A stretch of DNA of 7,081 bases, taken from the IMG/VR virus record IMGVR_UViG_2711768003_000002. One strand, 5' to 3'. This DNA is from a virus. Lineage: Duplodnaviria > Heunggongvirae > Uroviricota > Caudoviricetes. Both the position numbers and the translations under genes were made by a program. Below, one piece after another: positions 1 through 6,082 of the stretch; the first letter of the stretch is position 1, and the number at the start of each line of letters is the position of its first letter. Below the pieces are notes generated by a model, which did not search any database, had not been told where the DNA came from, and was given only the letters and a program-made list of their open reading frames with translations.

Positions 1-26
1 CTCAGCTCACCGTCGAACACTTTCCC
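1..26 (-). CDS. T: Start of the -1 frame extension that yields the gpGT tail assembly fusion (T frame), partial; continues past the left edge of the window
   Basis: From the slippery heptamer the -1 frame reads GGG AAA GTG TTC GAC GGT GAG CTG AG (G K V F D G E L ...) with no stop before position 1. This matches the beginning of the lambda T frame as I recall it. Only about 8 codons lie inside the window. Confidence 0.55.
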
Positions 27-1187: not shown

Positions 1188-1889
1188 TCACATTTCATAG
1201 ATAATGACATAAGTCAGATCGGCTGAACTCCACAGGCCCGCATCATCGTCGCGCCGGTAGTCATAGCCGCTGGCCACCATACTGGTGATCAAATCTGACA
1301 GTGCCGGGATATCGCTCATCACAGGATAAATCCGGGACTCCATCCACGAATCCAGCTCTGAATCCGGCACCTGAGCAGGCAGGAAAACTTCAATATGCAG
1401 CTCCGCCTGCCAGGTATCGCTGTCCAGCTCTTCGCCCGTGTATTCAGCGCCGGTGAGATAAACGGCANNNNNNNNNNNNNNNNNNNNNNNNNNNNNNNNN
1501 NNNNNNNNNNNNNNNNNNNNNNNNNNNNNNNNNNNNNNNNNNNNNNNNNNNNNNNNNNNNNNNNNNNNNNNNNNNNNNNNNNNNNNNNNNNNNNNNNNNN
1601 NNNNNNNNNNNNNNNNNNNNNNNNNNNNNNNNNNNNNNNNNNNNNNNNNNNNNNNNNNNNNNNNNNNNNNNNNNNNNNNNNNNNNNNNNNNNNNNNNNNN
1701 NNNNNNNNNNNNNNNNNNNNNNNNNNNNNNNNNNNNNNNNNNNNNNNNNNNNNNNNNNNNNNNNNNNNNNNNNNNNNNNNNNNNNNNNNNNNNNNNNNNA
1801 ACAGCGGGGCGACCATCAAAAAGCGTCGCCCCGGTGTCATGCTTCTCCAGTGCATCCAGTACGGCTGCACGGAGTTCAGTATGTTTCAT
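1188..1889 (-). CDS. U: Tail terminator protein gpU, interrupted by a 332-nt N run (1468-1799)
   Basis: The visible N-terminal 30 aa ([30 protein letters not shown]) and C-terminal 92 aa ([39 protein letters not shown]...TYVIIYEM) match lambda gpU. ATG at 1889-1887 overlaps the Z stop as ATGA; TGA stop at 1190-1188. The masked span is 111 codons where lambda has 9 (see findings). Confidence 0.8.
1468..1799. other. Run of 332 N (masked or unresolved sequence) inside the U gene
   Basis: Uninterrupted n characters in the supplied sequence. Confidence 1.
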
Positions 1890-2464
1890 CGCTTTATTAC
1901 CATTCTCAGTTGATGCTGCAGCGCATAGCCCAGCTCTTTCGGAAGACGTTCACGCCGTATCCGCTCAATATTTTGTTTAAACGCCGTGGTCAGCGGCACC
2001 GCCATCGGGATTTTCACCACATCAATGGGGTAACGGTTTTTCCCGGCCACACGCTGCATGACATGCCACCGGCCATTTTTCAGTTGCTGAATAAACGCGC
2101 CGGGAATACGACGGTTACCCACCACAAGCACGCTGCCGCCACCTTTCAGGGATGAACGCTGCCCCTTTTTATGACGCCTGCGGCGGGACAGGACAACCCG
2201 CGCATTACCCAGCTTGATTACGGGCAAATCCCCCCGGTTAACTTTGATTCTGGCCTGCGGATTTTTGACCGTGGCCCTTTTCAGCCTGGCCCTTTCCTTT
2301 ACCAGTTTCCGGCGTACCTTTGTCTCACGGGCAACCTGTGACGCAGACTGCGATATCGCGGATGAAGCAACGCGNNNNNNNNNNNNNNNNNNNNNNNNNN
2401 NNNNNNNNNNNNNNNNNNNNNNNNNNNNNNNNNNNNNNNNNNNNNNNNNNNNNNNNNNNNNNNN
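1886..2464 (-). CDS. Z: Head completion / tail attachment protein gpZ; 5' end lies in an N run and the start coordinate is an estimate
   Basis: The visible 162 aa (RVASSAISQSASQVARETKVRRKLVKERARLKRATVKNPQARIKVNRGDLPVIKLGNARVV...HQLRMVIKR) match lambda gpZ residues 31-192 as I recall them. TGA stop at 1888-1886. Start is placed at 2464 by assuming a 192-aa protein, as in lambda. Confidence 0.7.
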   Translation of the reverse strand, partial: XXXXXXXXXXXXXXXXXXXXXXXXXXXXXXRVASSAISQSASQVARETKVRRKLVKERARLKRATVKNPQARIKVNRGDLPVIKLGNARVVLSRRRRHKKGQRSSLKGGGSVLVVGNRRIPGAFIQQLKNGRWHVMQRVAGKNRYPIDVVKIPMAVPLTTAFKQNIERIRRERLPKELGYALQHQLRMVIKR

Positions 2465-2616
2465 NNNNNNNNNNNNNNNNNNNNNNNNNNNNNNNNNNNN
2501 NNNNNNNNNNNNNNNNNNNNNNNNNNNNNNNNNNNNNNNNNNNNNNNNNNNNNNNNNNNNNNNNNNNNNNNNNNNNNNNNNNNNNNNNNNNNNNNNNNNN
2601 NNNNNNNNNNNNNNNN
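2375..2616. other. Run of 242 N (masked or unresolved sequence) covering the FII 3' end and Z 5' end
   Basis: Uninterrupted n characters in the supplied sequence. Confidence 1.
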
Positions 2617-2818
2617 GGACAAACAGGGACGGGCTGGAGCCTTCAACGCGCACGCCCTGTCCGGCATAGCTGATATTTTCAGGGTCATCAAAAACACCAC
2701 GTATCACCGCACCTGACTGCTCACCGGATGTCATGGTGGCTGACGTTCCCATGTACCCGCGTATCGTTTCATCGGCGCGGGCAATGGCAGCATCGAACAG
2801 GTTATCGAAATCAGCCAC
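2465..2818 (-). CDS. FII: Head-tail joining protein gpFII; 3' end lies in an N run and the end coordinate is an estimate
   Basis: The visible N-terminal 67 aa (V/MADFDNLFDAAIARADETIRGYMGTSATMTSGEQSGAVIRGVFDDPENISYAGQGVRVEGSSPSLFV) match lambda gpFII. The start codon is GTG at 2818-2816, preceded by GGGAGG, 11 nt after the FI stop as in lambda. The 3' end at 2465 assumes 117 aa. Confidence 0.7.
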
Positions 2819-2829
2819 AGCGCCTCCCG

Positions 2830-3228
2830 TTATTGCATTCTGGCCAGGCCGCGCTCTGTCATTTCGGCTGCCACACCGGCAGAGACACGAAACGCCGTTC
2901 CCGGCAGCACAAATGCCACAGGTTTATCCCGCGTGGCGTGAAGTGCATCAGTATGCAGCGTCACCAGTGCCACGACCGTGACCAGTTCAGCCGTATCCTG
3001 AATCACGGTATCCGGCTGCGCTGATACCACCTCATTTTCATGCCCGGTCAGCACATTTTCCCGGCTGAGAGGGGTGTCCTGACCGGCAGTTTCATCCGTG
3101 TCATCAAGCTCTTCTTCCAGCTCTGCCACACGAAGCGCCAGTTCTTCTTTCGTTCCCGTCAAACTGACATCGCGGTTCAATTGCTCACCCAGCTCCTGAA
3201 GACGGGCAATCAGTTCATCTTTCGTCAT
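2830..3228 (-). CDS. FI: DNA packaging / head assembly protein gpFI
   Basis: The 132-aa ORF (MTKDELIARLQELGEQLNRDVSLTGTKEELALRVAELEEELDDTDETAGQDTPLSRENVLTGHENEV...ERGLARMQ) matches lambda gpFI. ATG at 3228-3226 is preceded by GGAGGAG; TAA stop at 2832-2830. The track ORF 2830..3267 starts at an upstream in-frame ATG inside the E-FI hairpin, which is unlikely to be used. Confidence 0.9.
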   Translation of the reverse strand: MTKDELIARLQELGEQLNRDVSLTGTKEELALRVAELEEELDDTDETAGQDTPLSRENVLTGHENEVVSAQPDTVIQDTAELVTVVALVTLHTDALHATRDKPVAFVLPGTAFRVSAGVAAEMTERGLARMQ

Positions 3229-3249
3229 GAACTCCTCCACAGAGAGAAA

Positions 3250-3267
3250 ATGGCCCCGAAGGGCCAT
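3250..3267 (-). other. RNA stem-loop between E and FI: 7-bp stem with a UUCG tetraloop (AUGGCCC-UUCG-GGGCCAU in the mRNA)
   Basis: The plus strand atggccc(cgaa)gggccat at 3250-3267 is a perfect inverted repeat with a 4-nt loop. In the transcript it starts 3 nt after the E stop codon (TAA at 3272-3270) and lies about 21 nt upstream of the FI start. Confidence 0.5.
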
Positions 3268-3269
3268 GA

Positions 3270-4295
3270 TTACGCCAGTTGAACGGACACGAACTCATCA
3301 GGATCAGCCAGCAGCATCAGCGGTGCTGACTGAATCATGGTGAACTCACGCGCCGGATCGCCGGTGGTCACCCAGTTTTTCGGGTAACGGGCAGAAGCGT
3401 TAATGCCTTCGCGCTGTGCGTCCGCATCCTGAATGCAGCCATAGGTGCGCAGACCGCGAGCCTGAGTGTTCCCCAGCACCATCGTGTTGTCCGGCAGGAA
3501 GTTCTTTTTGACGCCGTTTTCCACGTACTGTCCGGAATACACGACGATGGCCACATCGCCATACATTCCCTTATAGGACACCGCTTTGCCCAGGTCTTTT
3601 ACCGCTGTCTCCAGCTCGGAATGAGAGCCGCGACGGGTATCCAGCTTCTCCTTGACGGCTTTGAAGGAACGGAACAGCGCCCAGCCTTTCGGGTCAAACA
3701 CGATGATATTCACCACACCGCTGGCGTTCAGCGCGTAGGCTTCGATATCGTCGGTCGGGTCATACGTGGACTTGTCACGCTTGCTCCACTCCGTACCGCC
3801 GGACTGCGTGATGTTGTTCGCCGCACTGCGGCCCATATCCACCTCAACCGGATCGAAGGCTTCACCGGTCATGGTGTATTTGCCCTTGAGCACGGCAGAA
3901 ACTGCCTGCATCTCTTCGACCTGAGCAATGGCCAGCTCTTCGTCACGCATGTTCTGCATGATGATGCGACGGCGGCGGTAAGCCGGGTCCGCCAGATTCT
4001 GCGGATCTTCATCCGGCAGGCGACGCAGGGTCATCTGCGGATTCACCTCATGCTTGGGTTTGACATATCCCGGCGTAAATTCAGAGGTGGAGCCGCCACG
4101 GGAACGGATAACCTCACCGGAAACAATCGGCGAAACGTACAGCGCCATGTTTACCAGTCCCGGAATTTGTGAGAGATAGACTTTCTCCGTGGTGAAGGGA
4201 TAGCTCTCACGGAAAAAGAGACGCAGAAACAGCGGATCAAACTTAAATTTCTGCTCATTTGCCGCCAGCAGCTGGGCGGTTGTGTACATCGACAT
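3270..4295 (-). CDS. E: Major capsid protein gpE
   Basis: The 341-aa ORF (MSMYTTAQLLAANEQKFKFDPLFLRLFFRESYPFTTEKVYLSQIPGLVNMALYVSPIVSGEV...DEFVSVQLA) matches lambda gpE over its full length. ATG at 4295-4293; TAA stop at 3272-3270. The gap to the FI start is 41 nt, as in lambda. The track ORF extends to 4322 from an upstream in-frame ATG (MWLFLRDFF...) that is not supported. Confidence 0.93.
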   Translation of the reverse strand: MSMYTTAQLLAANEQKFKFDPLFLRLFFRESYPFTTEKVYLSQIPGLVNMALYVSPIVSGEVIRSRGGSTSEFTPGYVKPKHEVNPQMTLRRLPDEDPQNLADPAYRRRRIIMQNMRDEELAIAQVEEMQAVSAVLKGKYTMTGEAFDPVEVDMGRSAANNITQSGGTEWSKRDKSTYDPTDDIEAYALNASGVVNIIVFDPKGWALFRSFKAVKEKLDTRRGSHSELETAVKDLGKAVSYKGMYGDVAIVVYSGQYVENGVKKNFLPDNTMVLGNTQARGLRTYGCIQDADAQREGINASARYPKNWVTTGDPAREFTMIQSAPLMLLADPDEFVSVQLA

Positions 4296-4332
4296 AAAAA
4301 AATCCCGTAAAAAAAGCCACACAGGCGGCCTT

Positions 4333-4642
4333 NNNNNNNNNNNNNNNNNNNNNNNNNNNNNNNNNNNNNNNNNNNNNNNNNNNNNNNNNNNNNNNNNNNN
4401 NNNNNNNNNNNNNNNNNNNNNNNNNNNNNNNNNNNNNNNNNNNNNNNNNNNNNNNNNNNNNNNNNNNNNNNNNNNNNNNNNNNNNNNNNNNNNNNNNNNN
4501 NNNNNNNNNNNNNNNNNNNNNNNNNNNNNNNNNNNNNNNNNNNNNNNNNNNNNNNNNNNNNNNNNNNNNNNNNNNNNNNNNNNNNNNNNNNNNNNNNNNN
4601 NNNNNNNNNNNNNNNNNNNNNNNNNNNNNNNNNNNNNNNNNN
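4333..4642. other. Run of 310 N (masked or unresolved sequence) covering the D 3' end and most of the D-E spacer
   Basis: Uninterrupted n characters in the supplied sequence. Confidence 1.
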
Positions 4643-4753
4643 CGGGGTCATTGCAGGCGCTTTCGCACTCAATCCGCCGGGCGCGGTTGCGGTATGAGCC
4701 GGGTCACTGTTGCCCAGCGGCTGGTAATGGGTAAAGGTTTCTTTGCTCGTCAT
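4421..4753 (-). CDS. D: Head decoration protein gpD; 3' end lies in an N run and the end coordinate is an estimate
   Basis: The visible N-terminal 37 aa ([37 protein letters not shown]) match lambda gpD. ATG at 4753-4751 lies 7 nt after AGGGA and 9 nt after the C/Nu3 stop, as in lambda. The 3' end at 4421 assumes 110 aa. Confidence 0.75.
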
Positions 4754-4762
4754 AAACATCCC

Positions 4763-5368: not shown

Positions 5369-6082
5369 CCGGGACTGCAGTGTTTCCCGGACGTCATCCG
5401 GTAGATGGCTGTAGGGGTTGCCATCCACCTTATGGCTGCCGCTGTAAATCAGCGTGATTTCCACGCCCTGTTTCTCCAGCGCAGCGCCGTAATTACTGTG
5501 AGCCATCATGACGCCGATGGAGCCTGTCCGGGCGGTCTGCGTGACCAGACGCCGGGAGGCGGCACTGGCAAGCAGCTGACCTGCGCTGCAGTTCATGTCA
5601 TTGGCCAGCGCCCATACCGGCTTTATGTCACGCACACGGGCGATGATGTCAGCGCAGTCAAATGCTCCCGCCACCATTCCGCCCGGTGTGTCCATATCGA
5701 GCAGAATGCCGTCCACCATCGGGTCGCTGGCAGCCTGTTGCAGACGGGCGATAATGCCGTTGTAACCGGTCATCCCCGAGTACGGCTGCAGCGCCCGCGT
5801 CCGGCTGACCAGCGTGCCGGACACCGGCAGCACGGCGATGCCGTTCATTACCTGATAACTGCGGGCCTGTCGTGGTCCGTCATCATCACCGGATAACGCC
5901 AGCGCCGCGGGTGCCTCTCCGGCAGTCAGGCTGTCGCCGGATACTGCATCCGTCAGGCAGCTGATCCCAAGCTGGCCTGCAAGCGCACAAAAGAAAACCC
6001 GCGCATAGGCGGGTTCAAGCATCAGCGGCTCATTAAAAGCCATGCTGGCAATATGCGGGAGATTACGCAGCTCTGCTGTCAC
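4763..6082 (-). CDS. C: Capsid assembly (prohead) protease gpC
   Basis: The 439-aa product (V/MTAELRNLPHIASMAFNEPLMLEPAYARVFF...NDLLNTPV) matches lambda gpC. The start codon is GTG at 6082-6080, preceded by GAGGAGGAGAAGA, and overlaps the B 3' end by 20 nt exactly as in lambda. TAA stop at 4765-4763. The track ORF 4763..6217 runs further upstream into B and is not used. Confidence 0.9.
   Translation of the reverse strand: MTAELRNLPHIASMAFNEPLMLEPAYARVFFCALAGQLGISCLTDAVSGDSLTAGEAPAALALSGDDDGPRQARSYQVMNGIAVLPVSGTLVSRTRALQPYSGMTGYNGIIARLQQAASDPMVDGILLDMDTPGGMVAGAFDCADIIARVRDIKPVWALANDMNCSAGQLLASAASRRLVTQTARTGSIGVMMAHSNYGAALEKQGVEITLIYSGSHKVDGNPYSHLPDDVRETLQSRMDATRRMFAQKVSAYTGLSVQAVLDTEAAVYSGQEAIDAGLADELVNSTDAITVMRDALDARKSRLSGGRMTKETQSTTVSATASQADVTGVVQATEGENASAAQPDVNAQITAAVAAENSRIMGILNCEEAHGREEQARVLAETPGMTVETARRILAAAPQSAQTRSDTALDRLMQGAPAPLAAGNPASDAVNDLLNTPV

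Follow-up and report, generated by a model that had tools for sequence, protein, structure and literature searches.

The apparently enlarged tail terminator gene U of a lambda-type prophage scaffold is most probably an ordinary 131-codon gene interrupted by a mis-sized scaffold gap

The window, the whole 7081-nt stretch of lambda-type DNA analyzed here, carries on its minus strand an open reading frame (ORF) for the tail terminator gene U that measures 702 nt and would comprise 233 codons plus a stop. We assign a probability of about 93% to the reading that U is a normal tail terminator gene of the lambda type with 131 codons, into which the draft record places a scaffold gap of the wrong length, and that its size is not a real feature. 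All evidence for an excess in U is a distance written as N's, in which no extra codon is seen.

The window represents a head–tail block of the lambda type on the minus strand (G, V, U, Z, FII, FI, E, D, C/nu3, and part of B) and is colinear with lambda. Three runs of N interrupt it (gaps 1–3), the first of them within U (Table 1). Near the 3' end of G, the heptamer GGGAAAG is found at positions 20–26 (minus strand), which we take to be the lambda G/GT −1 frameshift slippery site, conserved here. The reading frame of T extends beyond the end of the window.

Table 1. Features of the window and of related sequences discussed in the text. Positions refer to the window unless another sequence is named.
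Feature	Position	Strand	Remarks
U (lambda-type tail terminator), as in record	1188–1889	−	ORF of 702 nt including the 332-N scaffold gap; visible parts match PF06141 and PDB 1Z1Z/3FZ2/3FZB
U codons 1–30	1800–1889	−	PF06141 profile positions 1–31; ATG overlaps Z stop (ATGA)
U codons 40–131 and stop (AVYLTGAEY...VIIYEM)	1188–1467	−	PF06141 profile positions 41–130
Scaffold gap 1	1468–1799		332 N; homologous 26 nt = U nt 91–116, residues 31–39, FDE(A/E)DFPA(V/I), in 142/142 relatives
Scaffold gap 2	2375–2616		242 N over FII end, 11-nt spacer, and Z start; homologous 253 nt; 11 nt too short
Scaffold gap 3	4333–4642		310 N over D codons 38–110 and part of the D–E spacer; homologous 240 nt; 70 nt too long
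V (major tail tube protein, 246 aa), complete	440–1180	−	7 nt downstream of U stop; exact protein widespread
Z (tail completion protein), visible C-terminal part, cut by gap 2	1886–2374	−	annotated in the source record as a piece of 162 aa
Shared 23-mer	U nt 90–112 in relatives (site of window 1468–1799); L150 425–447; L151 1046–1068; also L152–L154		
ISCro1 (IS66-family, 2.7 kb), between U and V	L148 1181–3894 (NZ_CP149565.1)		
IS621, splitting the major capsid gene E	L149 3443–4721 (NZ_CP091029.1)		

U sits between Z and V in the head–tail block, the position expected for its family. Its start codon (1889–1887) overlaps the stop codon of Z as ATGA, and its stop codon (TGA, 1190–1188) is separated by 7 nt from the ATG of V at position 1180; the Z-U-V gene order, the overlap, and the spacer are all the same in lambda. 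The two visible pieces of U (30 and 92 amino acids) align with residues 1–30 and 40–131 of lambda gpU (PF06141, Phage_tail_U; PDB codes 1Z1Z, 3FZ2, and 3FZB; tail cryo-EM structures 8IYD, 8K37, 8XOW, 8XPM, and 8XQB), from which they differ at 3 of 122 visible residues (F23L, A79S, and T128I). The sole difference to the lambda gene is the distance between the visible parts, which is 27 nt in lambda and 333 nt in the window, where it consists of the N's of the scaffold gap. On the strength of the 98% identity with the solved lambda protein alone, the U product is predicted to form a hexameric ring capping the tail tube. The original prediction had placed the 702-nt gene and its lambda-like junctions correctly, and the alignment confirms both its assignment of the visible halves to lambda gpU and its figure for the surplus, 306 nt.

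The profile of the family leads to the same arithmetic. PF06141 (130 positions) is matched by the N-terminal 30 amino acids with 31.6 bits and by the C-terminal 92 amino acids with 144.5 bits (curated cut-off, 25 bits). A single-domain member comprises ∼130 residues and has room for at most ∼9 residues between profile positions 31 and 41, where the record holds 111 codons' worth of unreadable N. The 26-nt stretch found at this site in all relatives that span it makes up 9 codons together with one visible base, and a 131-amino acid gpU reconstructed accordingly scores 203.5 bits over profile positions 1–130. The surplus of 306 nt is the difference between the 332 N's and these 26 nt. That the 702-nt gene is "in frame" means only that its length is divisible by 3, for which the chance is one in three.

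The reverse complement of the window is identical to an NCBI record (CWVI01000180.1; assembly GCA_001252255.1, 7081 nt), including the N runs of 332, 242, and 310 nt. This record, which probably stems from Shigella sonnei, is a complete draft scaffold of four contigs joined by the three N runs, and one of the contigs is only 575 nt long. U is annotated there as separate pieces of 30 and 92 amino acids, the latter under the name "phage tail terminator protein, partial [Shigella sonnei]". As the N's of the window are also present in the deposited draft scaffold, they are scaffold gaps and not a mask over known sequence. No exact match to the 233-residue U product with its X's is on record, a plasmid collection did not contain the source, and a literature search for the accessions found no citing paper.

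The lengths of all three gaps disagree with those of relatives. Lambda and an E. coli prophage both align without gaps to all four visible segments in their full length (96.9–99.2% identity), and by comparison with these two the N runs are wrong by +306 nt (332 versus 26), −11 nt (242 versus 253), and +70 nt (310 versus 240). We extended the comparison to 147 fetched loci. The equivalent of gap 1 is 26 nt in 142 of the 142 relatives spanning the site, including ones that are 99.8% identical to the window. The equivalent of gap 2 is 253 nt in 102 loci and 252, 254, or 296 nt in 8 others, and never 242 nt, whereas that of gap 3 is 240 nt in 80 loci and 239 nt in one, and never 310 nt.

The nearest relatives are Shigella/E. 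coli lambdoid prophages (e.g. FUBD01000096.1, CATNTE010000116.1, ABXZBY010000174.1, and CP104423.1), which share 99.8% identity with the window over its 6197 visible bases (14 substitutions and no indels) and carry its V, E, and C proteins exactly. These records are sequenced through the gap sites, where they have 26, 253, and 240 nt, so that U is 131, Z 192, FII 117, and D 110 amino acids long. The exact V, E, and C proteins of the window are common, and a 131-amino acid U accompanies them at every place shown. If the lengths of the N runs were faithful, three indels would be confined exactly to the 12% of the window that lies under N's, with none in the other 88%, and the 11-nt deficit at gap 2 would harm FII or Z. 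Gaps of estimated length in short-read scaffolds, as left by paired-read scaffolders with gap filling, are likewise irregular N runs that join short draft whole-genome contigs and err in both directions. Gap sizes derived from read pairs are known to be hard to estimate and imprecise, with steadier estimates between large contigs (PMC3446322, PMC4262078). Together with the identity to CWVI01000180.1, the gap lengths support the alternative that the original prediction itself had named, namely that the N run is a scaffold gap of merely estimated size.

The mis-sized gaps give rise to further false ORFs. Because gap 2 is 11 nt short, FII and Z happen to fall into one frame and read as a single ORF of 310 amino acids (1886–2818, minus strand). 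D likewise reads through gap 3 as an ORF of 202 amino acids (4151–4759, minus strand).

The 14 positions at which the window differs from its nearest relatives are 986, 1964, 1973, 2060, 2075, 3795, 3796, 3807, 4191, 4709, 5380, 5393, 5480, and 6363. At each of them, the allele of the window is also present in other lambdoid prophages, and the window has no private one; this suggests prophage recombination or a mixed consensus of co-resident copies in the draft assembly. We also considered that the four contigs are a chimera of different prophage types and rejected this, as the best match of all four lies in the same relatives. In another virus record (L133; IMGVR_UViG_2534682161_000009, positions 1861–3781), the head genes are 97–98% identical to the window, whereas V, U, and part of Z reach only 75–88%, which places a mosaic boundary inside Z in that record. 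When window positions 5370–5495 were searched in the viral, genome, and metagenome collections, this mosaic relative was the sole match.

Gap 1 lies where short-read assemblies tend to break. The 26-nt patch (U nt 91–116) occurs in at least seven alleles among relatives, which differ at nt 101, 102, 105, and 115, whereas its flanks are fully conserved. Two contigs from two other isolate assemblies (L156 and L157) begin at U nt 118 and 116, respectively. A partial gpU that starts at Ala-40, the first residue after gap 1 in the window, is found on 86 + 3 contigs, i.e. at least 89 other contigs, the 86 being those that carry a second 92-amino acid partial. Other partial gpU products start at Glu-33 (18 contigs), Asp-35 (15 contigs), and Phe-36 (2 contigs), and those starting at residues 33–40 amount to more than 120 contigs in all. 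The polymorphic patch is thus a candidate cause of the break, mainly on the evidence of these recurrent contig ends; a comparison of diversity under the three N runs with that of the visible parts gave no clear difference among 14 distinct full-length relatives.

A plausible course of events can be drawn from these observations. The number of such lambdoid blocks per E. coli genome has a median of 2 and reaches 9, and the source genome may have held two or more copies of a lambdoid prophage, or else a mixed allele. In this case, the assembly graph would have branched at the 26-nt patch, and the contigs would have stopped on both sides of it. The scaffolder would then have rejoined the contigs and written an over-estimated read-pair distance as 332 N, with the 575-nt flanking contig probably making the estimates of gap size unstable. 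The true sequence hidden under gap 1 would be ∼26 nt long and would encode FDEEDFPAI or FDEADFPAV, which restores a gpU of 131 amino acids.

One feature speaks against an artefact. The error at gap 1 (+306 nt) far exceeds those at gaps 2 and 3 (−11 and +70 nt), so that the artefact reading presupposes an exceptionally poor estimate. The same excess could be explained if real extra DNA of uncertain size, such as an IS or another repeat, breaks U; the 332 N's would then be a rough or truncated estimate, and U would be disrupted rather than enlarged. Shigella genomes are rich in IS elements, and IS insertions do occur in the same gene block of closed E. coli genomes (Table 1). We nevertheless consider this explanation improbable. 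An inserted element predicts that the flanks abut with a duplicated target site or that the contig edges carry foreign bases. Both edges instead follow U colinearly up to their last base, show no foreign bases, and leave 26 nt of U absent between them. Moreover, many other assemblies that have no insertion, represented by the 89 or more contigs noted above, share the break point, and every relative sequenced through the site has the 26 nt. The known IS insertions of the block measure 1.3–2.7 kb and lie elsewhere, and the nearest relatives, at 99.8% identity, have an intact U.

Even less probable, and in our view very unlikely, is that the N length is faithful and that 102 codons (306 nt) inserted in frame between residues 30 and 40 of U, as a domain, duplication, or intein-like element, yield a tail terminator of 233 amino acids. 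If true, this would place an element without a counterpart in sequenced relatives within a small, highly conserved, ring-forming protein. The length of 702 nt fits this reading in being divisible by 3, but the errors of gaps 2 and 3 are not multiples of 3, and one divisible discrepancy out of three is what chance predicts. The reading further has to take scaffold gaps as measured lengths and requires an 11-nt loss and a 70-nt gain in addition, whereas the 6197 visible nucleotides are without an indel.

Searches for an enlarged U elsewhere bear on the same point. Exact U flanks 315–345 nt apart gave no match in viral, genome, and metagenome collections. Flanks 15–40 nt apart are present in at least 120 viral contigs, with a 26-nt spacer in 80 of the 80 listed. 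Lambda spacing of the flanks was also seen in each of the 30 phage records and each of the 60 records of complete E. coli genomes listed. When the C-terminal 92 amino acids were compared with 1.84 billion representative proteins, none of the 85 relatives (representatives at 50% identity) had this block starting near residue 142 or an insertion at gpU residues 30–40; the long members among them are joins of gpC, gpZ, or gpE to gpU. The best 120 of 291 clusters at 90% identity likewise contained no protein near 233 amino acids and no insertion at residues 30–40. An in-frame change in the length of U is possible in principle, as illustrated by an E. coli gpU of 185 amino acids in NCBI (P0086) with an in-frame 54-amino acid tandem duplication (...ALWSSAD), but this duplication differs in both site and size, and no relative, contig, or protein found has an insertion at residues 30–40. 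The P0086 duplication was seen once, on two contigs, and may be either genuine or a product of the assembly. The ∼102 extra in-frame codons put forward in the original prediction as a domain, duplication, intein, or gene are therefore unsupported, given deposited scaffold gaps, three wrong lengths, and no insertion in relatives or databases.

The last reading, that the N's are a pipeline mask of true length over known sequence, was suggested by the word "masked" in the original prediction and by masked stretches mentioned for one collection, and is refuted by the public record itself, which contains the same three N runs with genes called as fragments on either side.

In three metagenome-derived proteins (P0001, P0122, and P0124), foreign sequence runs into gpU at precisely residue 30/31. 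It stems from the chromosome of an uncultured bacterium, where a gene for a Na/sulfate-type symporter is followed by a small secreted-protein gene, and neither E. coli genomes nor phages contained a match to it. The native foreign protein reads ...ADFDEADFPVEL..., and the DNA of the secreted-protein gene has an exact 23-mer, TTTTGATGAGGCGGATTTTCCGG (encoding FDEADFP), in common with U (Table 1). L150 and L151 are therefore chimeric contigs that the assembler created through the shared 23-mer, and we rejected the join at residue 30/31 as an insertion, the joined DNA being bacterial-chromosomal. Chimeric contigs of this kind arose in at least two independent studies (ERZ8158651 and ERZ28598493) and have introduced false "gpU" entries of 129–210 amino acids into public protein sets. 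As a cause of the break in the window, the 23-mer was rejected as well, since the source is an isolate draft and the 23-mer is absent from the GAA allele carried by the nearest relatives.

Some public records of lambda length (about 48.4–48.5 kb) match lambda-type DNA at lambda's own identity. These are MW057783.1, deposited as "Campylobacter phage", and NZ_CP082339.1, NZ_CP104294.1, and NZ_CP068597.1, deposited as "plasmids" of Salmonella, Stenotrophomonas, and Paenibacillus. All four are probably lambda control DNA carried into the assemblies.

The case of U cautions that the length of an N run in a draft scaffold cannot be read as a sequence length and that ORFs running through N's are artefacts, of which this scaffold holds three (the 233-amino acid "U", the 310-amino acid "FII-Z", and the 202-amino acid "D"). 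A test that can be reused is to compare each N run of a scaffold with relatives that are sequenced through it and then to consult the public record behind the window. For the prophage itself, the gap in U most probably has no biological significance, and U is an ordinary lambda-type tail terminator.
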